In this document: positions 42,710 to 56,282 of the stretch, one piece after another
Layout: every line of letters starts with the position of its first letter
Numbering within the stretch: position 1 is the stretch's first letter
Source of the DNA: an uncultured Clostridium sp.
GTDB taxonomy: Bacteria > Bacillota_I > Bacilli_A > RF39 > UBA660
Direction: 5' to 3'
Assembly (NCBI GenBank): GCA_947427095.1
Contig: CANEGO010000001.1
Coordinates: 131,428 to 195,427, forward strand
Length of the DNA stretch: 64,000 bases
Notes under the pieces: generated by a model
The model's database searches: none
Seen by the model: only the letters and a program-made list of their open reading frames with translations
Told to the model about the DNA's origin: nothing
Position numbers and translations under genes: made by a program

Positions 42710-43675
42710 TTATTTTTTTAATGTTAAACATGGATTTTTTAATGGTTTTTTTTGAAAATCCAAAACAAATTCTGACTCGTAATTTAACTGATTATCTTCA
42801 CCATCTAAAAAGTTTTTATAATCTTTACTAGAATACTTTGTTTCAAAAGAAAAATCATTAGTTTGTTCATAATACAGTCCGTTTCTATATGATAATGCAA
42901 AACCATCCATATAATCTTTTAACGTGACATCATCTAATTTTATCCATCCGTCTTTTAAAAGCTTTTGTGCAACTTTTATTCGTGAATCATTCATTATCAT
43001 AAATGCGCCGGATAAACACCCACTTAATTTTGGGATACCTATTCTTTGTAAAATACATCTATTTAACTGAAAAAACTGCGCATAAGTACAATCTATTAAA
43101 TACTCTTTCCCGTCTATTTGGACAATAACAGCATAATGTTGCTTAATACCATTGCACAAAATGGGCTTTGTTGTAAAACCTGGAAACAAAGCTATTTTTT
43201 TACAATTTATCCCTATTTCCCTACACAGACTTTCTATATAATTGCTAACTGGCAAACATTGCCCTACCATGTTAAATTTATCTAAAGATAAATTTAATTG
43301 ATGATTAGCTTTAGAGCATATAAAATTCCTTGCATTATTAGTAATATAGCTTAAAATATCTTCAGGATTTTTTCCACAAACAAATAAATTATCATCTGGA
43401 TTATAATTTGCTTTAATATCTATAACATATTCATTTGATAATAATCTTTCACACTTAAGAACTAAGCTTGTTATGGCAAAATAATTTTTCCCAAAGTTTT
43501 CATCTTTACTATATAACTCAAACGATATATCTTTTACATATTGATATAATTGTTCAATGCTCTTTATCTTAGAATCAGTATTGCTAAGGTTTAACATATA
43601 AGTATAATATTTTTTTATTTCTTGACAATATTCACCATAATAATCATTTGCTTTTTTTGCTTGTTCTAACGTCAT
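42710..43675 (-). CDS. Hypothetical protein (possible Cys-His-Asp papain/transglutaminase-like fold)
   Basis: 321 aa. Candidate catalytic triad in GQCLPVSNY ... HYAVIVQIDGKEYLIDCT. Confidence 0.3.
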   Translation of the reverse strand: MTLEQAKKANDYYGEYCQEIKKYYTYMLNLSNTDSKIKSIEQLYQYVKDISFELYSKDENFGKNYFAITSLVLKCERLLSNEYVIDIKANYNPDDNLFVCGKNPEDILSYITNNARNFICSKANHQLNLSLDKFNMVGQCLPVSNYIESLCREIGINCKKIALFPGFTTKPILCNGIKQHYAVIVQIDGKEYLIDCTYAQFFQLNRCILQRIGIPKLSGCLSGAFMIMNDSRIKVAQKLLKDGWIKLDDVTLKDYMDGFALSYRNGLYYEQTNDFSFETKYSSKDYKNFLDGEDNQLNYESEFVLDFQKKPLKNPCLTLKK

Positions 43676-43947
43676 AAAACCCCTCTTTTAATGACAAATA
43701 CTATATATTATTAAGATAAAAAAGTCAATATTTGAAGAATTTTCTTAAATATGTTTTAGTCTCAAAGTAATTATCATCACCAGATAAAGAAAAATTCATA
43801 TTATTTATTTCTAAATATGTTTAAAACTCTTTATAAGAAAATTTAATTGTAATCCTTTTATTATTTTAAAACAATAAAGAACTTGTCGTACTGCTGCTTC
43901 TTTAAATTAGTTAATAATTTTATCTTCTTTCTAAATTTAAATAACAA

Positions 43948-43980
43948 AAACACTAATCCAAATTTGGATTAGTGTTTTAT
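43948..43980. terminator. Orphan hairpin terminator in a divergent intergenic region
   Basis: aacactaatcca-aat-ttggattagtgtt hairpin (12-bp stem) with a T run. Confidence 0.4.
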
Positions 43981-44212
43981 TCTTAACTCGAAGAGTTCGA
44001 GCAAATTTCACTATGGAGCCTTAACGATACACGTATGCGAAAAATTATACTCCCAAGATTGATTAAATCAACTGATAATTAAATTATAGCAGATATTCCA
44101 ATTATTTCAAGTGGGAGTATGGAAAAAAATGCCTAAATATGTTATTATTATAGTAGATTTGTATCATTAAAATTATGATACTTTTTATTTTAGAAAAATT
44201 AAGGAGGATGTT

Positions 44213-45025
44213 ATGGAAACAGTAAATGGATATTTAACTTCAATACAATCAGATTTATATGTAAATGGTACAGAAAAAGATAGTATTAAGACATCTATAG
44301 ATGCAATATGTACTAGACTAGGTTATTACTTTGGAAATTCAGAACATAATATTCATAAAATTATTAAGAAAGATATCTTTGGTTCTTATAGTAGAGACAC
44401 TATGCTTTCAAGAAAGTACGATGAAGATTCGGATATTGACTTAATGATTATTTTTGAAGATGCTAATGAATATACACCGCAAACTTGCTTAAATTGGCTA
44501 AAAGAATTTGCTGATTATTGGTATCCAAATTCATTAGTAAAACAATCTTTACCAACAATAGTTATTGAATTACAAAATATAAAATTTGAATTAGTACCAG
44601 CATATAAAAATGATTATAACAATTTATATATAGCAAAAGACAGTTCAAATTGGCAATATACTAATCCTAAAGATTTAAACGATAGGATGGTTAAATTAAA
44701 TTCAAATACTAATTTTGAATTTAAAAGAATGATAAGAACAATCAAATATTGGAATGTTAAAAAGAATTATAGAAGATATAAATCATATTTTTTAGAAAAA
44801 TATTTAACAGAAAAGTTTGAAACTTCTTATATACATTGTAAAAATCAATTTGATTATTTAGATTGGGCTTTCTATCATTTAGGACATTATGATGCCAATG
44901 ATGACTATATAAGTAGTAGAATAAAATCTGCTCAGTCAAATATTACGGATGCTCAAAATTATGAAAAAAATTGCGACTATGATTCTGCAGTGAAATGTAT
45001 AAAAAAAATAATTCCAGAGACATAA
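44213..45025 (+). CDS. Pol-beta-superfamily nucleotidyltransferase, SMODS-like (candidate second-messenger synthase)
   Basis: 270 aa. Strong AAGGAGG RBS. Active-site pattern GSYSRDT...DEDSDIDL (GS-x10-DxD) plus a downstream acidic residue. Confidence 0.45.
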   Translation: METVNGYLTSIQSDLYVNGTEKDSIKTSIDAICTRLGYYFGNSEHNIHKIIKKDIFGSYSRDTMLSRKYDEDSDIDLMIIFEDANEYTPQTCLNWLKEFADYWYPNSLVKQSLPTIVIELQNIKFELVPAYKNDYNNLYIAKDSSNWQYTNPKDLNDRMVKLNSNTNFEFKRMIRTIKYWNVKKNYRRYKSYFLEKYLTEKFETSYIHCKNQFDYLDWAFYHLGHYDANDDYISSRIKSAQSNITDAQNYEKNCDYDSAVKCIKKIIPET

Positions 45026-45035
45026 GAGGTATTGT

Positions 45036-45812
45036 ATGGAAAATGAAAGAAAAGATGAAGTTCAAGAACTTTACGATAGATGCAATAGAATTTCAAAGTA
45101 TGCAGATTGGTTGTTTTTAATTAATATAGTGATTTCATTTATATTAATATTTGATTTTAAATATAGAGATATACTTATTATTATAAGTTTAATATTAACT
45201 ATTATATATGTTGTATTAGTAAATATAAATGAAATCTATTTTAATAATCTAGCAGAAAATGAAAGAAGGAAATCCCTTTTAAAAGAGTCTTTTGATGTTA
45301 ATACTACTTTAAGAGAAACAAATAAGTATTACAATAATGAAGCTGAACCATCTATTAAAAAACTTGGTCTAAATTGTTATGAAAGTGCTTTTTTTACAAA
45401 AAGAGTAGTAGATAAAATGCTTCCCAGAAATATTATTAAAATTGTTATATTTACTATAATATATATTGTTTTAATGATGAAATTAGAAAATATGGATTTA
45501 TTATTAGTAATTACACAAACATTATTTTCGGCTGAAATTATATTTTCATTTATAAAATTATGTTATTATAAATTCCAATTAGATAAAGTTTGTAACGAAT
45601 TTCAAAATATATTTCTTATAATAGGCTTAAAAAATAAGGATGTGAATGTTTTAATTTTAGATGCTACTATGGATTATGAATGCTTAAAAAACTACTGCAA
45701 GATTTCAACGTCAAGTAAAATATTTTTTGACAATAACAAGAAATGGTCAAAAGATTGGCAAAAATTGTTAAGTAAAATTAGGAAAAAATCGGAGAGGGAT
45801 AATAATGAATAA
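45036..45812 (+). CDS. Four-TM membrane protein (S-4TM-like candidate effector)
   Basis: 258 aa. Four predicted TM helices (WLFLINIVISFILIF, ILIIISLILTIIYVVLV, IIKIVIFTIIYIVLMM, LLLVITQTLFSAEIIFSFI). It lies 10 nt downstream of the NTase. Confidence 0.45.
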   Translation: MENERKDEVQELYDRCNRISKYADWLFLINIVISFILIFDFKYRDILIIISLILTIIYVVLVNINEIYFNNLAENERRKSLLKESFDVNTTLRETNKYYNNEAEPSIKKLGLNCYESAFFTKRVVDKMLPRNIIKIVIFTIIYIVLMMKLENMDLLLVITQTLFSAEIIFSFIKLCYYKFQLDKVCNEFQNIFLIIGLKNKDVNVLILDATMDYECLKNYCKISTSSKIFFDNNKKWSKDWQKLLSKIRKKSERDNNE

Positions 45813-46434
45813 AAAAATTGAAAATGCTATAAAATACTATAAGTTATGTACTAAACTAAAAGATACAATTAGGACAGGTCCTATTGTTTGGAATGCCAAA
45901 AGAGAAAGAATCGAAAGTGTTGCAGAACACATATATGGAGTTCAAATGTTAGCATTAGCTATTTATTATCAATTTGGATACAAATTAGATATTATGAAAG
46001 TTATTTATATGTTAGCAATCCATGAACTAGAAGAAATAGAAATTGGTGATTTAGCATTTTTTGAAACTACAAGAGAAGAAAAACTCGTTAAAGGCAAGGA
46101 AGCAACAGATTATATACTAAAAGATTTTCTTGGAAAAGATGAAATATCGGCATTATTAGATGAGTATAATGAAAGAACTACAGAAGAATCTAAATTTGCT
46201 TATAATTGTGATAAATTAGAATGTGATATTCAAATGAAACTGTATGATCAAGAAGGATGTTTTGATTTAAATAATCAGCCTAATAACCCAATCCTCAATA
46301 ATCCTAGTGTTAAAAAAGTATTGGATAGTGAAAAAAGCATATCTAATGCCTGGATTGAATTTGATAGAAGCAAGTATGAAGATGATAAAAACTTTATTGA
46401 AATTGTTGACTATTTAAAAGAAAAAGAAATATAA
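45805..46434 (+). CDS. HD-domain phosphohydrolase (YfbR-like 5'-deoxynucleotidase family)
   Basis: 209 aa. HD motif ESVAEHIYGVQMLALAI...AIHELEEIEIGD. Overlaps the upstream gene by 8 nt. Confidence 0.55.
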   Translation: MNKKIENAIKYYKLCTKLKDTIRTGPIVWNAKRERIESVAEHIYGVQMLALAIYYQFGYKLDIMKVIYMLAIHELEEIEIGDLAFFETTREEKLVKGKEATDYILKDFLGKDEISALLDEYNERTTEESKFAYNCDKLECDIQMKLYDQEGCFDLNNQPNNPILNNPSVKKVLDSEKSISNAWIEFDRSKYEDDKNFIEIVDYLKEKEI

Positions 46435-46451
46435 ATTAGGAGGCTAAAATT

Positions 46452-47258
46452 ATGCAAAAATTAATTATGTTAGGAACAGGACACGGCTTTGTCTATAATT
46501 GTTATAATACCTGCTTTCTGTTGCAAAATGATAATGAATACTTTTTAGTTGATACTGGAGGCAGTGCTCATATAGTACAGAATCTTGAAAAATTAAATAT
46601 AAGTTTAAATAAAATACATAACATTTTTATTTCCCATAGCCATACAGATCATATTTTAGGATTATTTTGGCTATTAAAACGAATAACTGGAATGGTTCGT
46701 TCTAAGAAGTATGATGGAAATTTAAATGTTTATTGTAATGATGAAGTAGCAAATGCTATTAAAAATATTTATCCTTATTTATTTCCAGATGTTTATGGTG
46801 AAGTGATAGATAAATATTTAAATATAGTAGTTTTAAATAATAATGAAACAAGGAAAATTACTAATAGAGAATATACTTTTTTTGATGTAATGGCAAGTAA
46901 AAATAAATTATATGGATTTGAAACAATTCTTGATAATAATAAAAAATTAGTATTTCTTGGTGATGAAACTTGTAATCCGTTGTTGTATGATAGAATCAAA
47001 AATAGTGATTATGTAATGCATGAGGCGTTTTGCTTGGATAGTGAGCAAGATATATTTAAACCTTACGAAAAAAAGCATTCAACTGTGAAATCAGTATGTG
47101 AGAATTTTACAAACTTAAATATTAGAAATTTAATTTTATATCATACAGAAGATACACATTTAGAAAACAGAAAAGGATTATATATAAAAGAGGCTCAAGA
47201 ATATTTTAATGGTAATGTTATAGTACCAAATGATTTAGAAATAATCGACTTAGATTAA
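46452..47258 (+). CDS. MBL-fold metallo-hydrolase
   Basis: 268 aa. HSHTDH (HxHxDH) motif and an MLGTGHG N-terminus. Confidence 0.7.
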   Translation: MQKLIMLGTGHGFVYNCYNTCFLLQNDNEYFLVDTGGSAHIVQNLEKLNISLNKIHNIFISHSHTDHILGLFWLLKRITGMVRSKKYDGNLNVYCNDEVANAIKNIYPYLFPDVYGEVIDKYLNIVVLNNNETRKITNREYTFFDVMASKNKLYGFETILDNNKKLVFLGDETCNPLLYDRIKNSDYVMHEAFCLDSEQDIFKPYEKKHSTVKSVCENFTNLNIRNLILYHTEDTHLENRKGLYIKEAQEYFNGNVIVPNDLEIIDLD

Positions 47259-47273
47259 GGAGATGTTTAAAAT

Positions 47274-48035
47274 ATGGATTCAAACAATAAAGTTAATAAT
47301 TATGATAAGTTTGCTGAAAAAAGACATTATGAGGTTAAAAATGGAATGAAAAAGTCATTAAGATTTGTAGAAAAACCTATGATGACATCAATGCTACCAA
47401 ATTTAGAAGGCAAAAGAATTCTTATGTTAGGATGTGGCACTGCCGAAGAAAGTGAGTTATTAAGTAGATATAATCCTAAAAAGATAACTGGAATTGATAT
47501 ATCAGAAAAATCTATTCAAGTTGCTAAAGAAAGTTATCCAAATTGTGATTTTTATGTTGGTGATATGTTAAGCCTTCCATTTAAAGATAATGAATTTGAC
47601 TTTATTTTTAGTAGTTTAGCAATTAGTCATGTTGAAGATAAAAACAAAGTCTTTAAAGAATTATATAGAGTTTTGGATAATGAAGGACAATTATTATTTT
47701 CAGTTGGTCATCCAATGAGATTTGCTACTGAAAAAATTGATTATAATGATACTTCATATCATGTTATTGGATTTGAGGCTGGTAATGATGGTAATCATAT
47801 ATTAGGAAATTATATGTCTCATACAAAGCAGGTAAATTATTTTAAAGATAATGAAGTATTAGAAGAATTCATTGCTCCACCATCATATTTTTTTGAGGCA
47901 CTTATGAAAAATAATTTTGTAGTTGAGAACTTTAAAGAATCTAGATGTATTGATGAATGTAAAGAAGTAGATGAAGCCTATTACAATAGATTTCACGAAC
48001 TACCACAATTTATGGCATTTTTGGCAAAAAAATAA
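47274..48035 (+). CDS. Class I SAM-dependent methyltransferase (type 11)
   Basis: 253 aa. SAM-binding motif I ILMLGCGTAEES and motif post-I GIDISE. Confidence 0.7.
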   Translation: MDSNNKVNNYDKFAEKRHYEVKNGMKKSLRFVEKPMMTSMLPNLEGKRILMLGCGTAEESELLSRYNPKKITGIDISEKSIQVAKESYPNCDFYVGDMLSLPFKDNEFDFIFSSLAISHVEDKNKVFKELYRVLDNEGQLLFSVGHPMRFATEKIDYNDTSYHVIGFEAGNDGNHILGNYMSHTKQVNYFKDNEVLEEFIAPPSYFFEALMKNNFVVENFKESRCIDECKEVDEAYYNRFHELPQFMAFLAKK

Positions 48036-48050
48036 AAGACAATGGCTAGG

Positions 48051-49355
48051 TTACCAATTCCTAGAATTGTCTTTTTCTTTTTGCATATCCTTATCAAAAT
48101 TATTAAGATTATTTTGTATAGATTCAGATTGTTTTCTAATTTCTTTACAGTAATTATCTAATTTGCGAAGTTCTTTGATTTTGGGTTGAATAGAATTTAT
48201 TTCAGCAAGTATATCTGATTTTTTATCTTCAGTTTTTACTCTGTGATATCGTTTCCAAAGATTTTCTCTTTTACCCATAAGGTTTTGATATTCTTCATAA
48301 TTATTTTTAGCAAATGCCTCCAAATCCTCTTTAGTTTCAATTTTATTGGCTACCATAAATCTTGTTTGTTCTGAAAATGAATCTAACTTTTTTATTTCTT
48401 TTCTTATAGAATAGGATAGATATTGTTTTGGGTATTTTTTTGGAAAGACTCCTAGAAGATAGCAATAGTATAAATATAAGCCATAGATACCTTTGTAATG
48501 ATTATTAGTCTTTGATAAATATTCTTGAAAAATAGACTTTTGAGATATAGATTTAAAAATAATTTGTTTTGAATAATATAATCGTTCATTAATTCTATTT
48601 TTTGAATAATCACTACCAAATACTTTTTCAATTCTAACTTTATCATAACCATCTCTATAAATAGTTATTATGCCATTACGAGAATAACATTTATAACCTA
48701 TCTGTTTCATTCTATCCATAACTTGTGTTAGTGTAACAGAATAATTAATAATGCTATCTAAATCATCTTTTAGGACTTTGTAATAATCGTTATCAATCAC
48801 TTTATGATTATAAGTGTTTTTATAACCAACATCCTCATTTAAAACAGAGAGTCCATATTCAGCACATAGTGAATCAGAAATGTGTCTTAGCTTGGCTAAG
48901 TTAGTTCTATTGTTATTATACTTTTTGCCAGTCTTGAATGAAACAGAGTTGACTATGAAATGATTGTGAATATGATTTGTATTCTGATGAGTAGCAACAA
49001 CCACTTCATAATCTTTAAACATTTCTTCTACAAACTTAACTCCAATTTCGTGAGCAACATCAGCTGTAACTTCTCCTTCCTTAAAAGATTGGTATCCATG
49101 ATATGCTAGAACCCCATCATTCTTACGATAATAATCTTTTGTATCTTTCATATCATCATAGGGATTATCATCATTACAATTTAAACAACTTACGTAACAG
49201 ATTTTTTCTTTTTTAAAATCATAATCTTTTTTACCTTCTAAAAAATCGTAATCAACTTTACCATAATCTTTATTGGTAGTCTTTTCTGGATTGATGATAT
49301 AATTTATAGATTGTTTTAAATTATTTTTAATACTCCATATAGATGTTGTCGCCAT
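48051..49355 (-). CDS. Mobilization relaxase (MobA/VirD2-type relaxase domain)
   Basis: 434 aa. Histidine triad motif HQNTNHIHNHFIVN and a C-terminal coiled-coil-like region. Confidence 0.6.
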   Translation of the reverse strand: MATTSIWSIKNNLKQSINYIINPEKTTNKDYGKVDYDFLEGKKDYDFKKEKICYVSCLNCNDDNPYDDMKDTKDYYRKNDGVLAYHGYQSFKEGEVTADVAHEIGVKFVEEMFKDYEVVVATHQNTNHIHNHFIVNSVSFKTGKKYNNNRTNLAKLRHISDSLCAEYGLSVLNEDVGYKNTYNHKVIDNDYYKVLKDDLDSIINYSVTLTQVMDRMKQIGYKCYSRNGIITIYRDGYDKVRIEKVFGSDYSKNRINERLYYSKQIIFKSISQKSIFQEYLSKTNNHYKGIYGLYLYYCYLLGVFPKKYPKQYLSYSIRKEIKKLDSFSEQTRFMVANKIETKEDLEAFAKNNYEEYQNLMGKRENLWKRYHRVKTEDKKSDILAEINSIQPKIKELRKLDNYCKEIRKQSESIQNNLNNFDKDMQKEKDNSRNW

Positions 49356-49421
49356 AATTAAGGTTTAGCCTTTCTTTTTTAGTGGTGGGAGTACCAGCAC
49401 GTTGCTCGCTTATAGACAACA

Positions 49422-49775
49422 TCATACATATACCAACTCTTTTAAGATAATTTCTTCTGCACAGTCTTTATAATTATTCATCAATTCCACCCATTCAATT
49501 TGATTATTTGCTTTACTTTTTTCAGTTAGTTTTTCATCATTTTTAATATAATTATCCATTAAAATTTTAAGTCTATCTTCACATTCATTACTGACTGAAA
49601 CAAGATGATTTGTTAATTCATCTTGCATAAGAAGGGTCGTATATAGACCTTTATTATGCTCTTTTAGATAATTTAATCTCAAATATCCATACTTGTTAAT
49701 TCTTTCATAATTTTGATTTTTTATAGTTAGATTTGGTAATAAATAATCTCCAACTTTTGTATAATTTAATTTCAT
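49422..49775 (-). CDS. TnpV-like small protein
   Basis: 117 aa. Its size and its position next to the large serine recombinase match TnpV of Tn4451/Tn4453-type elements. This is recalled from family knowledge and has not been searched. Confidence 0.4.
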   Translation of the reverse strand: MKLNYTKVGDYLLPNLTIKNQNYERINKYGYLRLNYLKEHNKGLYTTLLMQDELTNHLVSVSNECEDRLKILMDNYIKNDEKLTEKSKANNQIEWVELMNNYKDCAEEIILKELVYV

Positions 49776-49778
49776 TTT

Positions 49779-51924
<2,146 letters not shown>

Positions 51925-52005
51925 TCACATAACAAGGACACCTAGAATATATTGATTTTTACACGACAAAATAAATCAATATAGTGGGAGTATGTAACTC
52001 ACCAA

Positions 52006-52278
52006 TTAATGCCTTGCTATGTACTCTGATAATTCAGACAATGGGATTTTCTTTTTTAGATTCCCTATGTAAAAATGTTTCTGCTCATTGAAGAATAAGT
52101 ATAACTTATTATCAATAATCACTTTGTGTGGTTCCACATATGCGATATTCGTGTGTTCCACAATTCGTAAATAACCCTCTATGATTTTATAGGAGAGGTT
52201 ATTAAATTTGCAAGACCAATTAATTTTGTCTTTGAGTTCATCGCTCATATTGATTTTCTTTTTTACAATTTTAATCAT
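52006..52278 (-). CDS. Hypothetical protein
   Basis: 90-aa ORF lying between the Tn-like element and the partial tRNA-Gly copy. Confidence 0.35.
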   Translation of the reverse strand: MIKIVKKKINMSDELKDKINWSCKFNNLSYKIIEGYLRIVEHTNIAYVEPHKVIIDNKLYLFFNEQKHFYIGNLKKKIPLSELSEYIARH

Positions 52279-52385
52279 ACCACATCACACCTTTCTTGAC
52301 TAGACCTTTTTAGTCGACAAAAAAATCAATCATATTTCAGATTGATTTAATCATTAACGTCACTTGGTGCGACGATTTTACCTTT

Positions 52386-52429
52386 TGGAGCAAGTGATGG
52401 GAATCGAACCCACGTCTCAGCCTTGGCAA
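52386..52429 (-). repeat. 44-bp direct repeat identical to the 3' end of tRNA-Gly (island att repeat, partial tRNA)
   Basis: Positions 52386-52429 are identical to 56208-56251 (tggagcaagtgatgggaatcgaacccacgtctcagccttggcaa). Confidence 0.75.
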
Positions 52430-52558
52430 TTTAAAAAAATATGCATTAGAAACAGCGCTTTTTTGCTGATATTTTAATGAAGTTTAACTAATTTTAATCG
52501 TTTTAAAAAGGGCTTAAATTTAAAGAAAATTCAGAAAAATTAAAATAAATTTAACAAT

Positions 52559-52582
52559 TTGGCACGATTTTGGCACGATTTT
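52559..52582 (+). repeat. Tandem TTGGCACGATTTT-GGCACGATTTT repeat (left end of the island)
   Basis: Directly visible. A degenerate third copy TTGGTGCGACGATTTT lies at 52365-52380. Confidence 0.6.
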
Positions 52583-52748
52583 AATTTTAGGGTGAATTTA
52601 CCATGTGTAACAATTAAGTTACAGCTTACAAACTTTGTTTTCTTTTTAAAAACATTATATATGAATTATTGTTAAATTTTCATGGGAGTATATAAATAAT
52701 TTGAAAATTATTATATAATTTAATTAGTTTGTTTGTCGGAGGTGCTGT

Positions 52749-54440
52749 ATGAATATCATAGATAAACTTGAACAAGAAAAAATACATGTTGGTATAAGAT
52801 ACTATGGATTAGAAGACTTATCTACAGGAATAATAGTTAAAAGTTTATTAGATGGTAAAAATACTATATTAGATAACTATAAAACTAATAGTATCACAAC
52901 AATTGAAGATTATATTGATTATATTTTTCTAGATTTTATTATGAAATTTGAAGAAGTTATTCCATATGTTAAAGAGGAAAAGAGAGATGAATTCGGAGAA
53001 TTTATAGCAAACTGCAAAGTTATTTATAAAGAATATTCAATTGGTAATGTAGTTAAATACATTCAAAAAGATTATAAAAACATTTATCAATATACTGATA
53101 AAAATGAAAGTACTTATATAGCATTTGATTTAAAGAATTATACTTCTGAATTTGTTGCTGATCATTTTAATTGTTTTAATGATGATATTATGAATTATAT
53201 AATAAATGAGGAAACATATGATGTTATTGATTGTTTTAGAAAATGGCAGAAATATTTTATAAGAAAACCTGAGCAATTAATTGAGCTATTGAATGAAAAA
53301 AATATTAATAAAGTATTTTTCATGAGAGTTCAAGAAATTATTGATATAATTGATTCTTTAAAAAATAATAATAAATTTGATAAAATAGTATCAGATGCTG
53401 TAGAAATTATTTATAAAATATTAGAAACGCAGTATTTTAATCCAAACGGAGATCAGAAAATATGGCAGAGTTTCTATATGTTAAATGATTGTCTACCATT
53501 ATTTAAAAAAATGAAATCAACTTATGCCTATAGCTTAGAACAAGAATTAGAAAAACAAGAAAACTTATTTAATGAGAATTTAGTGAAAAATGGCCATAAA
53601 CAAACTATAAAGTTTGATTTAAAACCTTTTAAAGATTTCTTTGAAGATAACACAAAACCTTGGGAAGTTAGAATAGTATTTTTAACACATTCAAAGGATG
53701 AGGACGGAAAAATTGTTAGTTTTCTTGAACAAGGTGTAAAATGTGATACAAAAGCACTAACAGATGAATTGGTCAGAAAAAATCCTGGCACAGATGATTA
53801 TTTTACAAGTTGGAGATTAAGAAACTTAAGTTATTATTCATTTGAAATCAAATCAAGATTTATGACTTTAATGAATTCTAGTAATAATATTAGTGAATAT
53901 CTATCTGACATTTATGGTGAATTAAAATATATCTGCGATAATCTTAATACAAGTATGGAGATTGAATCATTAGATGAAAATATGGAGATGTTATCTCAGT
54001 TTTTAACTGATTTGTTTATAAATTATTCTAAAGATTCAGACAAATATAAAATTTCTATAAAAAACTTAATTTATGGGTGTTCTATGTTTTTATGTGGCTT
54101 TATTGAAAAAATATTAAGAATTATTTATAAAAACAGTATGAAGGATATATCTTATATTCCTGATTCAAGTATAACGTTGGGTAACTTGTTAGTTGAAAAT
54201 GATAATAATACTGAGATTTTAATTAATATATTGGGAATAGAACAAATAAAATGTCTTAGGTATTACTTGCATAAAATAGATTATTATAATGTTGTTGGGC
54301 AAAATATTAGAAATAATCTTGCACATATAAATGGTAAAACAATGAAAAACTTAAATTATGATTTGATATTAGAATTACTTTCCTATTTTACGTCTATTCT
54401 TAATAGTTGTGTTTTATACTATCAAGGGAAAAACAAATAA
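52749..54440 (+). CDS. Hypothetical 563-aa protein with a C-terminal HEPN-like Rx4H motif (Abi-like?)
   Basis: A GGAGGTG RBS is present. The C-terminus carries NIRNNLAHINGK (R-x4-H), as seen in Abi_2/HEPN families. The rest is unrecognised. Confidence 0.35.
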   Translation: MNIIDKLEQEKIHVGIRYYGLEDLSTGIIVKSLLDGKNTILDNYKTNSITTIEDYIDYIFLDFIMKFEEVIPYVKEEKRDEFGEFIANCKVIYKEYSIGNVVKYIQKDYKNIYQYTDKNESTYIAFDLKNYTSEFVADHFNCFNDDIMNYIINEETYDVIDCFRKWQKYFIRKPEQLIELLNEKNINKVFFMRVQEIIDIIDSLKNNNKFDKIVSDAVEIIYKILETQYFNPNGDQKIWQSFYMLNDCLPLFKKMKSTYAYSLEQELEKQENLFNENLVKNGHKQTIKFDLKPFKDFFEDNTKPWEVRIVFLTHSKDEDGKIVSFLEQGVKCDTKALTDELVRKNPGTDDYFTSWRLRNLSYYSFEIKSRFMTLMNSSNNISEYLSDIYGELKYICDNLNTSMEIESLDENMEMLSQFLTDLFINYSKDSDKYKISIKNLIYGCSMFLCGFIEKILRIIYKNSMKDISYIPDSSITLGNLLVENDNNTEILINILGIEQIKCLRYYLHKIDYYNVVGQNIRNNLAHINGKTMKNLNYDLILELLSYFTSILNSCVLYYQGKNK

Positions 54441-54522
54441 CTTTATTAATTATATTAAGTTTTTAATTAATTTTTATGTATAATTATTATTAAAATAATT
54501 TATTGGTAAAAGGAGTATAAGA

Positions 54523-55572
54523 ATGAATGAGATTAATATGGTTTGGTTAACTCTTAATAGAAATTGTAATTTAAGGTGTAAATGGTGTTATGCAAAAGGA
54601 GAAAAGTTTGATTTTAATCTTAAAATGGATTTTGGTTTAGCTCAAGAGCTTATTGATTTTATTAATGATTTAGGAGTTAAAGAGGTTGCTCTAATCGGTG
54701 GAGAACCAACTTGTTATAGTGAACTTAAGAAGTTAATTTCTTATATAAAATCAAAAGATATAAAAGTTTGTTTAATAACAAATGGTCTTATTTTTAGCGA
54801 TAAATCTTATTTACAAGAATTAGAAAATTTAGGTGTTGATAGTGTCAACTTTTCTATGAAGGGTTGGTCAAAAGAAAGTTACATCGTTAATACTGGTGTA
54901 GATGCTTTTGATAAAACATTAGAAGCATTAAAAAATATATCTAATTCAAATATCAATAGCATGGTTTCTTTTGTAATCAGTTATGAAAATATTGATTATC
55001 TTTTAAAAGTTGTTGAAATTACTTCAGAATGTGGAATAAAAAACTTTTACTTCTCATTTGAAAACGACTTTTCTGTGCTTGACGGTGAAATAAAAAAATA
55101 TGATGTGAATGAAATTTCTAAAATTGTTAAAGTTTTTTCTGAAAATTATGAAGAGTTAAATAGATTAACAAGGGAAAATTTTACATTACACCAATCACTT
55201 CCTCTTTGTGTTTGGAATAAGGATATAATAGAGAAAATGAGAAATAAAACCCAAATTCAAACATCTTGTATATTACTACAAAGGAGTGGACTAGTTTTTG
55301 ATACAAATGGATTTTTAATACCGTGTAATTCTATACACCAAGTCAAACTTGGTAAGTTTAAAAAAGATTTTAAAGATAAAAAAACATTTTACTCATTCTG
55401 GAATTCAAATCAGATGAATAAAATATATAATAAGTTTTGTTCTTTACCAAGTAAAACATGTAATAAGTGCAAAGATGAGTCTGTTTGTGGAGGAGGATGT
55501 CTTTCGAATTGGTATAATTATGAATTTAATGATTTATTAAATGAAAATATAATAAAAAATAATGTAAATTAA
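54523..55572 (+). CDS. Radical SAM/SPASM-domain peptide maturase
   Basis: 349 aa. CxxxCxxC cluster CNLRCKWC at the N-terminus and a C-terminal Cys-rich SPASM region (CNKCKDESVCGGGC). Confidence 0.8.
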   Translation: MNEINMVWLTLNRNCNLRCKWCYAKGEKFDFNLKMDFGLAQELIDFINDLGVKEVALIGGEPTCYSELKKLISYIKSKDIKVCLITNGLIFSDKSYLQELENLGVDSVNFSMKGWSKESYIVNTGVDAFDKTLEALKNISNSNINSMVSFVISYENIDYLLKVVEITSECGIKNFYFSFENDFSVLDGEIKKYDVNEISKIVKVFSENYEELNRLTRENFTLHQSLPLCVWNKDIIEKMRNKTQIQTSCILLQRSGLVFDTNGFLIPCNSIHQVKLGKFKKDFKDKKTFYSFWNSNQMNKIYNKFCSLPSKTCNKCKDESVCGGGCLSNWYNYEFNDLLNENIIKNNVN

Positions 55573-55641
55573 TTTTTAAGTTGTAAATTGACAGGTTAAA
55601 AAAATTAATATATTATAGTTAAAAGAAGAGGTGAATATCTT

Positions 55642-55881
55642 ATGGAAATTAATGGTGCATTACAAAAATTAAAAAAGAACGGAAGCTTACCTAAGAAGCC
55701 TTTTAGAAGTATTGGAAGTCATATCAAACTGGCTACTATAGGACCGTGTTCGGCATGTGGTGCTTGTTTCCGTGATAATGATGATGTGATTAAAAAAAGT
55801 ATAAATGACAGTTCATTTCAAAAAAGTAATAAGTTTAAACGTTGCGTTTCTGGTCCATGCTCAGCATGTGGTGCTTGCTAA
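55642..55881 (+). CDS. Cys-rich precursor peptide with a duplicated GPCSACGAC core (candidate RiPP precursor)
   Basis: 79 aa with an AGAGGTG RBS. It contains ...ATIGPCSACGACFRDNDD... and a C-terminal ...VSGPCSACGAC. It sits immediately downstream of the rSAM/SPASM gene. Confidence 0.6.
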   Translation: MEINGALQKLKKNGSLPKKPFRSIGSHIKLATIGPCSACGACFRDNDDVIKKSINDSSFQKSNKFKRCVSGPCSACGAC

Positions 55882-56093
55882 TTTAATAATAAATATTTTT
55901 AGAAAAAATATAATTTTGTAAAAAAGATAATTAAAAATTGTAAAATTTGTTTAATTATCTTTTTTAATTTGTTTAAAGCTCTAACCCTGGTTTCAGCCAT
56001 AAAATTTTAATTATATTTATATTAATTTCAACGAGTTTTAAACAAAAGTATAATAGATTATGATTAAAAAATATTAATCTATAGTTTATTATT

Positions 56094-56118
56094 TTGGCAC
56101 GATTTTTGGCACGATTTT
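56094..56118 (+). repeat. Tandem TTGGCACGATTTTT-GGCACGATTTT repeat (right end of the island)
   Basis: Directly visible. Same unit and orientation as 52559-52582. Confidence 0.6.
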
Positions 56119-56173
56119 CATTTTTGAGTAAAAAAAGGCTATTTTTTGATATTTTTGAACTTTTTAAAATATG

Positions 56174-56200
56174 AAAAAACCCTTATTTTATAAGGGTTTA
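56174..56200 (-). terminator. Terminator downstream of the tRNA-Cys/tRNA-Gly pair
   Basis: aaaccctta-tttta-taagggttt hairpin plus a U run on the minus strand, immediately 3' of tRNA-Gly. Confidence 0.5.
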
Positions 56201-56207
56201 TTTGCTA

Positions 56208-56282
56208 TGGAGCAAGTGATGGGAATCGAACCCACGTCTCAGCCTTGGCAAGGCCGCGTACTAGCCGTTGTACTACACCTGC
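56208..56282 (-). tRNA. tRNA-Gly (anticodon GCC)
   Basis: The reverse complement GCAGGTGTAGTACAACGGCTAGTACGCGGCCTTGCCAAGGCTGAGACGTGGGTTCGATTCCCATCACTTGCTCCA folds as a cloverleaf with anticodon loop UUGCCAA and an encoded CCA. Confidence 0.85.

Follow-up and report, generated by a model that had tools for sequence, protein, structure and literature searches.

The subject of this analysis is a short run of genes that resembles an antiphage signaling system that is based on cyclic oligonucleotides (CBASS) and is carried on a small integrative mobilizable element (IME). It lies within a stretch of 64,000 nucleotides (nt) from an uncultured Clostridium sp. (contig CANEGO010000001.1 of assembly GCA_947427095.1, positions 131,428 to 195,427), here called the window, and all coordinates are counted from the first letter of that stretch. 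The list of open reading frames (ORFs) in the window confirms five genes on the plus strand, which encode proteins of 270, 258, 209, 268 and 253 amino acids (aa):

44213..45025, plus strand: predicted nucleotidyltransferase of the cGAS/DncV-like type (CD-NTase) or SMODS oligonucleotide cyclase, 270 aa (Pfam, PADLOC, catalytic residues, AlphaFold2 fold)
45036..45812, plus strand: predicted CBASS membrane effector with four transmembrane segments (4TM), 258 aa (PADLOC Effector 4TM, hydrophobic segments, conserved adjacency)
45805..46434, plus strand: HD_3-family phosphohydrolase (HE variant), 209 aa, probable passenger cargo (Pfam HD_3, relatives)
46452..47258, plus strand: predicted ElaC/RNase Z-like hydrolase of the metallo-beta-lactamase (MBL) fold, 268 aa, probable passenger cargo (Pfam, AlphaFold2 fold)
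47274..48035, plus strand: predicted class I S-adenosylmethionine (SAM)-dependent methyltransferase of small-molecule type, 253 aa, probable passenger cargo (Pfam Methyltransf_11)

The spacer between the cyclase and 4TM genes is 10 nt long, and the 4TM and HD genes overlap by 8 nt. Beyond the block, on the opposite strand, lie a relaxase gene, ORFs of 117 aa and 80 aa, a gene for a serine recombinase of 623 aa and an ORF of 90 aa. An earlier note, made from the letters alone, had described the five genes as one candidate nucleotide-signaling module; its ORF positions, spacer and overlap were all recovered exactly, and Pfam agrees with its domain calls for the nucleotidyltransferase (SMODS), the HD protein (HD_3), the MBL protein (Lactamase_B_2) and the class I SAM methyltransferase. 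An identical five-gene block is present on an independent metagenome contig (99.9% nucleotide identity over 4128 nt) with a different left flank, which argues that the block is real and mobile.

Profile and fold comparisons identify the 270-aa protein as a CD-NTase/SMODS cyclase, for which synthesis of a cyclic oligonucleotide is predicted. It matches Pfam PF18144 (SMODS) at 106.8 bits (E=1.8e-30; gathering score 26.5), with residues 3-163 aligned to positions 2-164 of the 164-position profile, and the PADLOC Cyclase model PDLC00769 from end to end (E=2.6e-71). There are also weak PF18765 and PF01909 matches to the Pol-beta nucleotidyltransferase core. At E<=0.1 the NCBIfam matches consist of CBASS_cyclase_a, CBASS_cyclase_b and one weak MntA match, with no Lnu/ANT model among them. 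The earlier assignment to the pol-beta type with GS and DxD elements is borne out, as an alignment of 26 homologues, which share 34-89% identity with the window protein, shows no variation at residues G57, S58, D74, D76 or E126. The spacing given there, GS-x10-DxD, was mistaken: the active-site motif is GS-x15-DxD, with the catalytic pair D74xD76 on the predicted beta-strand 74-81 and E126 as the third acidic residue. In the AlphaFold2 model (mean predicted local distance difference test score, pLDDT, 94.0), D74/D76 and E126 lie on adjacent strands (74-81 and 123-132). The best 50 folds found by Foldseek in the PDB are all CD-NTases (CdnD, CdnB, CdnC, CdnE, DncV and CdnG), with no ANT or Lnu structure among them; the query-normalised template modeling (TM) score is 0.75-0.81 for the best CdnD and CdnB matches, and the helical C-lobe is included in the match. 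Identity to solved CD-NTases is only 12-16%, the nearest structures belonging to clades D, B and C. Homologues of the cyclase form 81 clusters, and the closest named genome, that of Clostridium sp. CAG:609, encodes a cyclase that is 87% identical to the one in the window.

The 258-aa protein is covered over its full length by the PADLOC model PDLC00719, Effector 4TM (E=8.4e-57; residues 4-247 on positions 2-253 of 256), and a Pfam scan of it returned no domain. Kyte-Doolittle analysis gives four hydrophobic segments (residues 19-37, 41-59, 128-146 and 155-173), in agreement with the four transmembrane helices predicted earlier; these form two hairpins (19-59 and 128-173) with a loop of ~70 residues between them and a tail of ~80 residues after the second. 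The association of this protein with the cyclase was followed in a species-level scan, in which the cyclase alignment was used as the query against one genome per species and which yielded 80 loci from many phyla; the pairing counts rest on the 79 of them in which the cyclase ORF is intact. At 44 of these 79 loci, no more than 150 nt separate the cyclase gene from a 4TM-family gene, and at most of the others a different transmembrane protein adjoins the cyclase. Cyclases at 70-71% identity occur as a bare cyclase and 4TM pair between an integrase gene and housekeeping genes. No Cap2/Cap3, HORMA/TRIP13 or QueC/TGT/OGG domain was found by Pfam in the ten genes of the element or by PADLOC in the five cargo genes, and the system is therefore placed in type I. 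Judged by these profiles and neighborhoods, the cyclase and 4TM pair is a canonical minimal type I CBASS, an already known kind of system. The pairing of a SMODS protein with a 4TM partner proposed in the earlier note is thus upheld by the PF18144 match and by both PADLOC models, and a signal generator with a membrane effector of the SMODS/S-4TM type is supported; its statement that the combination was not a described canonical system does not apply to this core, which the PADLOC models recognize as type I CBASS.

Relatives of the cyclase (34-43% identity) are also encoded on 20 viral or prophage contigs in IMG/VR (L183-L202; L-numbers are the labels of the sibling and relative loci that were compared), and both the cyclase and the 4TM protein have matches among PHROG families whose function is unknown (phrog_23526 and phrog_31574). 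These observations suggest that the pair travels on prophages too.

Within the CBASS family, the two modules do not always share the same history. In comparison with L032, L033, L038 and L100, the effector of the window has an identity of 82-84% as protein and 86% as nucleotide sequence, and the cyclase one of only 41-43%, the break in similarity falling at the boundary between the two genes, 45025. The reverse discordance is seen in L005 and L012, where cyclases that are ~70% identical are paired with effectors that are 37-41% identical. These sequence comparisons indicate that cyclase and effector modules have been exchanged within the family exactly at the gene boundary. This implies that the signal is shared or else that the effector is tolerant.

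The same architecture is known from several sources. Burroughs et al. are said to have predicted a SMODS + S-4TM pairing in 2015, and this architecture has since been absorbed into type I CBASS. The pair in the window, a minimal SMODS nucleotidyltransferase adjoining a four-transmembrane protein with no other domain, does not differ from it in principle. A characterized example is EcCdnD12-4TM, a type I operon of a CD-NTase and a 4TM protein that gives broad defense in E. coli and whose toxicity needs the cyclase aspartates (bioRxiv 10.1101/2023.05.21.541620). Both are two-gene systems of a CD-NTase and a four-transmembrane protein of ~250 aa, free of ancillary Cap genes and with the GS/DxD/acidic triad; the cyclase of the window, however, is short (270 aa), and its host is a low-GC Firmicute; the likeness drawn here is one of architecture. 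A further pair is found on the conjugative (lacticin 3147) plasmid pMRC01 of Lactococcus lactis (NC_001949.1, 21584-23131, corresponding to L203 5998-7545), between ISS1 and a recombinase gene. There the cyclase homologue is 40.6% identical over 99% of the query and is followed after 3 nt by a 4TM homologue (31.6% identity over 95%); HD, MBL and methyltransferase genes are absent, and the annotation names the first protein only 'nucleotidyltransferase domain-containing protein' and the second only 'hypothetical protein'. No published link of the pMRC01 pair to phage resistance was found. Its identity with a published lactococcal abortive infection system was considered and rejected: the type I CBASS tested from lactococci is a different one, of SLATT/AGS-C type (PMC11381338).

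The remaining three genes show a different distribution. The HD protein matches Pfam HD_3 at 94.3 bits (E=1e-26; cutoff 22.5), with the YfbR-like model PF12917 under its cutoff (20.9 against 25.9 bits), and among solved structures HDDC2 (4dmb) and 1xx7 are the closest to it. The metal motif reads H42...H73-E74...D82...D135, in which H73-E74, replacing H-D, is invariant in relatives. HD homologues form 3674 clusters, of which >120 are at >=79% identity, and are abundant in gut metagenomes; a PADLOC scan of the HD protein gave no match. Copies that are 90% identical lie in a cargo of 574-aa, GNAT, HD and methyltransferase genes beside a Mob_Pre relaxase and a serine recombinase, and copies that are 81% identical adjoin a Pol-beta/WDGH nucleotidyltransferase and AAA_15 on an element with relaxase, TnpV and recombinase, in both cases without CBASS. 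From these neighborhoods (L016-L022), the HD gene turns up repeatedly in the cargo of serine-recombinase mobilizable elements, in varied company. In L002, an 89%-identical relative, a deletion of ~70 nt (L002 5009-5135 against window 46238-46309) cuts the HD protein to 149 aa and leaves the cyclase and 4TM proteins intact.

The start of the HD gene is informative in this respect. The 3' end of the effector gene (45791-45812), GGAGAGGGATAATAATGAATAA, holds a Shine-Dalgarno-like sequence as well as an ATG overlapping the stop codon. When the window is compared with L023, L032, L033, L038 and L100 at this junction, the same overlapping ATG is seen to start three unrelated genes, encoding an HD protein, a 366-aa protein of unknown function and a FAD oxidoreductase. 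On this comparison, the effector 3' end acts as a cassette-like junction for downstream genes. The earlier note had taken the 8-nt overlap as a mark of coupling between the 4TM and HD genes; the overlap itself stands, but with three unrelated genes starting at this ATG it does not point to a partnership specific to 4TM and HD.

The MBL protein matches Pfam Lactamase_B_2 (E=9e-16), and its AlphaFold2 model (pLDDT 93.5) is closest in fold to arylsulfatase (8gyg), the YhfI/ElaC homologues 1zkp and 6knt, RNase Z and Apyc1, at 17-21% identity to the best matches. On sequence and model together, it is probably a phosphodiesterase of the ElaC/RNase Z-YhfI-Apyc1-arylsulfatase branch. It shares with Apyc1, an anti-Pycsar MBL phosphodiesterase, the ElaC-like MBL fold (TM 0.70-0.81 for 7u2r and 7u2s) as well as the HxHxDH motif region. 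It differs in being only 17-20% identical to Apyc1 and in missing the cutoffs of the Apyc1 model PF23023 (24.9 bits against 50) and of NF041851, the NCBIfam model for cyclic-nucleotide-degrading phosphodiesterases (23.6 bits against 400); the YhfI, RNase Z and arylsulfatase folds are equal or better matches, and 7u2r stands only 17th in the fold ranking (TM 0.75/0.81), after arylsulfatase, the YhfI/ElaC homologues and RNase Z. Membership in Apyc1 was rejected on the curated cutoffs; the fold comparison does not discriminate. MBL homologues form 6272 clusters. MBL relatives (50-89% identity) were followed at 80 metagenome loci, of which none has a cyclase or 4TM gene and ~17 adjoin a serine recombinase or TnpV; no relatives of the MBL protein were found on viral contigs. 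The methyltransferase matches Pfam Methyltransf_11 (E=1.5e-24), its BioC/UbiE-like NCBIfam matches are all under their cutoffs, and neither NCBIfam nor Pfam gave an Erm or Cfr match. By its profiles it is a BioC/UbiE-like enzyme of small-molecule type and not an rRNA-resistance enzyme. PADLOC gave generic, weak matches only for both proteins.

Within 5 kb of the cyclase gene, an HD gene is present at three of the 79 species-level loci, an MBL gene at none and a methyltransferase gene at one, so that the five-gene system proposed in the earlier note is not sustained. In sibling CBASS elements the same cargo slot is filled by varied genes: truncated HD with ASCH-NUDIX and a methyltransferase, NUDIX with PHP-NUDIX, the 366-aa unknown with a 49%-identical HD, the FAD oxidoreductase with a methyltransferase, KilA-N with HTH, or an alpha/beta-hydrolase. 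Because they are rare beside the cyclase and recur on sibling elements free of CBASS, the HD, MBL and methyltransferase genes are probably interchangeable passengers drawn from a shuffled cargo pool and not components of the signaling system.

The element that carries the block, and the features that define it, are as follows:

44014..52391, no strand: IME, 8.4 kb (limits of sibling homology, TGGAGC repeats)
44014..44019, no strand: left junction core TGGAGC (start of homology in eight sibling or related elements)
44020..44212, plus strand: element-internal leader, probable cargo promoter region (conserved among siblings)
48051..49355, minus strand: MobA/VirD2-type relaxase, 434 aa (Pfam PF03432, E=1.1e-36)
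49422..49775, minus strand: TnpV, 117 aa (Pfam PF14198, E=3.5e-34)
49779..50021, minus strand: 80-aa backbone ORF overlapping the recombinase gene (66-68% identical in L034; no Pfam match)
50008..51879, minus strand: large serine recombinase, 623 aa (Pfam Resolvase and Recombinase domains)
52006..52278, minus strand: 90-aa backbone ORF at the recombinase end (82-91% identical in L031, L038, L040 and L100; no Pfam match)
52386..52391, no strand: right junction core TGGAGC (end of sibling homology)
52386..52429, minus strand: 44-nt copy of the tRNA-Gly(GCC) 3' end, insertion target (identical to 56208-56251)

Homology to siblings begins at ATGGAGC followed by CTTAACGATACACG (44013/44014) in eight sibling or related elements, all with different upstream flanks, and ends at TTTTGGAGC (52391; consensus ...GATTTTAyCTTwTGGAGC). 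The relaxase is 73-74% identical in L038, L100 and L020. For the recombinase, identity to sibling elements is 67-85%; its Zn_ribbon_recom match, at 22.2 bits, stays under the cutoff of 25.3. With a relaxase, TnpV, a large serine recombinase and limits set by TGGAGC, the earlier description of the block as cargo of a serine-recombinase mobilizable element is supported. The TGGAGC core is the complement of the tRNA acceptor end GCUCCA; 56208-56251 is the 3' end of a true tRNA-Gly gene, and an intact tRNA-Gly(TCC) gene adjoins each of the siblings L031, L038, L040, L034 and L008. Thus, from its junctions, this IME family appears to be site-specific for tRNA-Gly 3' ends. A weak sigma-70-like site lies in the leader at 44120-44148, in a scan that overall, in this AT-rich DNA, did no better than on shuffled sequence (43 sites against 39 expected). 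The Rfam scan of 43.6-56.5 kb returned two tRNAs only and no riboswitch or leader family, and plasmids yielded no match when searched with the DNA of the whole element at near identity.

The earlier note had spoken of Tn4451-family elements, a label that fits only in part. The Tn4451/Tn4453 mobilizable transposons of clostridia likewise have a large (TnpX-like) serine recombinase, TnpV and a relaxase of their own, are small, and hold their cargo on the stretch from one end of the element to the relaxase gene. Differences lie in the relaxase family and in the target site: the relaxase of the window is MobA/VirD2 (PF03432), whereas the Tn4451 relaxase TnpZ is listed as MobV (Mob_Pre), and the core of the window is TGGAGC at a tRNA-Gly 3' end, whereas Tn4451 uses a GA dinucleotide crossover at many target sites (PMC5704250). 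The cargo also differs, being a predicted defense system here and catP there.

Around the element, the window contains recG, a gerA-type germination operon and a Cu/Zn superoxide dismutase gene at a GC content of 25-30%, which indicate that the insertion site is chromosomal and lies in a spore-forming low-GC Firmicute. Directly to the left of the element, on the minus strand at 42710-43675, is a gene for a 321-aa protein with sub-threshold Tox-PLDMTX and arylamine N-acetyltransferase matches, which may be a transglutaminase- or papain-like enzyme. At 43947-43978, 35 nt outside the left junction, a 14-bp perfect hairpin, AAAACACTAATCCAAATTTGGATTAGTGTTTT, stands between T and A runs and is probably a bidirectional host terminator. 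To the right, the perfect 44-nt direct repeat (52386-52429 and 56208-56251) brackets a 3.8-kb islet, 52430-56207, that has no integrase. Its genes encode a radical SAM enzyme (54523-55572) and a 563-aa protein (52749-54440) for which Pfam, PADLOC, NCBIfam and PHROGs gave no match. The islet resembles a further element acquired at this same tRNA hotspot. In L008/L009 (1493-5243 and 8001-13995), a sibling element with a 63%-identical cyclase and a Mob_Pre relaxase lies beside AAA_13 and SLFN/AlbA_2-HATPase genes, a neighborhood that may be a small defense island.

Taken together, these data lead us to favor, at a probability of roughly 85%, a two-gene type I CBASS on an 8.4-kb IME, with the HD, MBL and methyltransferase genes as independent passengers. 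In this scenario, the IME is inserted at the TGGAGC core in a tRNA-Gly 3'-end copy. Phage infection would activate the 270-aa CD-NTase to produce a cyclic di- or trinucleotide, and this signal would bind the cytoplasmic parts of the 4TM effector, namely the ~70-aa loop between the hairpins and the ~80-aa C-terminal tail. The effector would then disrupt or depolarize the membrane and stop phage production (abortive infection), while the three passenger genes would be co-transcribed with the pair. It should be noted that several points weigh against this scenario. For the nucleotide made, the trigger and the effect on the membrane, the scenario extrapolates from other CBASS systems, and signal sensing is proposed for an effector without a recognizable nucleotide-binding domain. 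The CBASS_cyclase_a and CBASS_cyclase_b scores of 75.2 and 42.8 bits are under the 200-bit equivalog cutoff, and by these scores the cyclase is a divergent, short CD-NTase outside two narrow NCBIfam models. In addition, a modulatory role of the genes behind the pair is conceivable, as nucleotide hydrolases (HD, NUDIX, PHP-NUDIX, MBL) trail the pair in several close relatives, and no terminator-like site was found between the five genes, which are tightly packed with the 8-nt HD overlap.

The last two of these points are what one would expect if the five genes were one system, in which HD and/or MBL hydrolyze the CBASS signal (as a ring-nuclease-like reset or a guard against self-killing) or deplete nucleotides, and the methyltransferase adds a modification step. 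The 89% relative retains the same 4TM/HD junction, close relatives have the pair trailed by HD and NUDIX, by NUDIX and PHP-NUDIX or by HD, and the MBL protein sits in the ElaC/YhfI/Apyc1 phosphodiesterase branch. However, such a system is very unlikely given the counts of 3, 0 and 1 in 79 loci, the bare two-gene systems of the relatives at ~70% identity, the far greater frequency of the same HD and MBL genes without CBASS, the sharing of the overlapping ATG with the unrelated 366-aa and FAD oxidoreductase genes, the truncated HD of L002 and the lack of specific PADLOC matches to the three proteins. A different role for these genes is conceivable if the pair is a type I CBASS and HD, MBL and the methyltransferase are separate cargo that benefits the element, being neither neutral passengers nor CBASS parts; they might degrade signaling nucleotides of Pycsar- or CBASS-like systems in a new host, or sanitize or detoxify the nucleotide pool. 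The recurrence of HD and MBL on many serine-recombinase elements, the fold and sub-threshold profile match that the MBL protein shares with Apyc1 cyclic-nucleotide phosphodiesterases and the membership of HD in the HDDC2/YfbR-type nucleotidase family are consistent with this. We regard it as unlikely, as the Apyc1 and cyc_nuc_deg_phdiest (NF041851) scores are far under their cutoffs, the MBL fold is equally near or nearer to arylsulfatase, YhfI and RNase Z, and its relatives were not found on viral contigs.

A further idea, which we consider quite unlikely, is that the translationally coupled HD (perhaps also MBL) is a facultative CBASS accessory which hydrolyzes the cyclic-nucleotide signal or its precursors and sets the activation threshold, as ring nucleases do for type III CRISPR; or, more broadly, that recurring HD/NUDIX/MBL cargo serves as signal-degrading counter-defense and aids establishment in new hosts. 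The alternative raised in the earlier note, that the nucleotidyltransferase is an antibiotic-modifying (Lnu/ANT-like) enzyme and the element a Tn4451-like resistance transposon, can draw on the Pol-beta core with its weak PF18765 and PF01909 matches and on the classical presence of resistance genes on Tn4451-type elements (PMC5704250). The evidence on the cyclase refutes it: the NCBIfam matches are to CBASS cyclase models and weakly to MntA instead of Lnu/ANT, the SMODS and PADLOC cyclase scores are strong (107 bits and E=3e-71), 50 of the 50 best folds are CD-NTases with the helical C-lobe included, and the 4TM partner is conserved. A resistance enzyme at this locus is thus extremely improbable.

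If the locus is read as a two-gene type I CBASS with passenger cargo, the current understanding of CBASS is unchanged by these findings. The main residual novelty would be modulation or counteraction of nucleotide signaling by the recurrent cargo hydrolases, a low-probability proposal. The locus also illustrates that tight packing and a start/stop overlap in the cargo of a mobile element are poor evidence of a functional system, because unrelated genes have been spliced onto the same overlapping start codon. What the window adds is a well-delimited minimal CD-NTase + 4TM CBASS on a small tRNA-Gly-targeting IME of low-GC gut Firmicutes, in which the swapping of cyclases and effectors between elements bears on how signal specificity is maintained.

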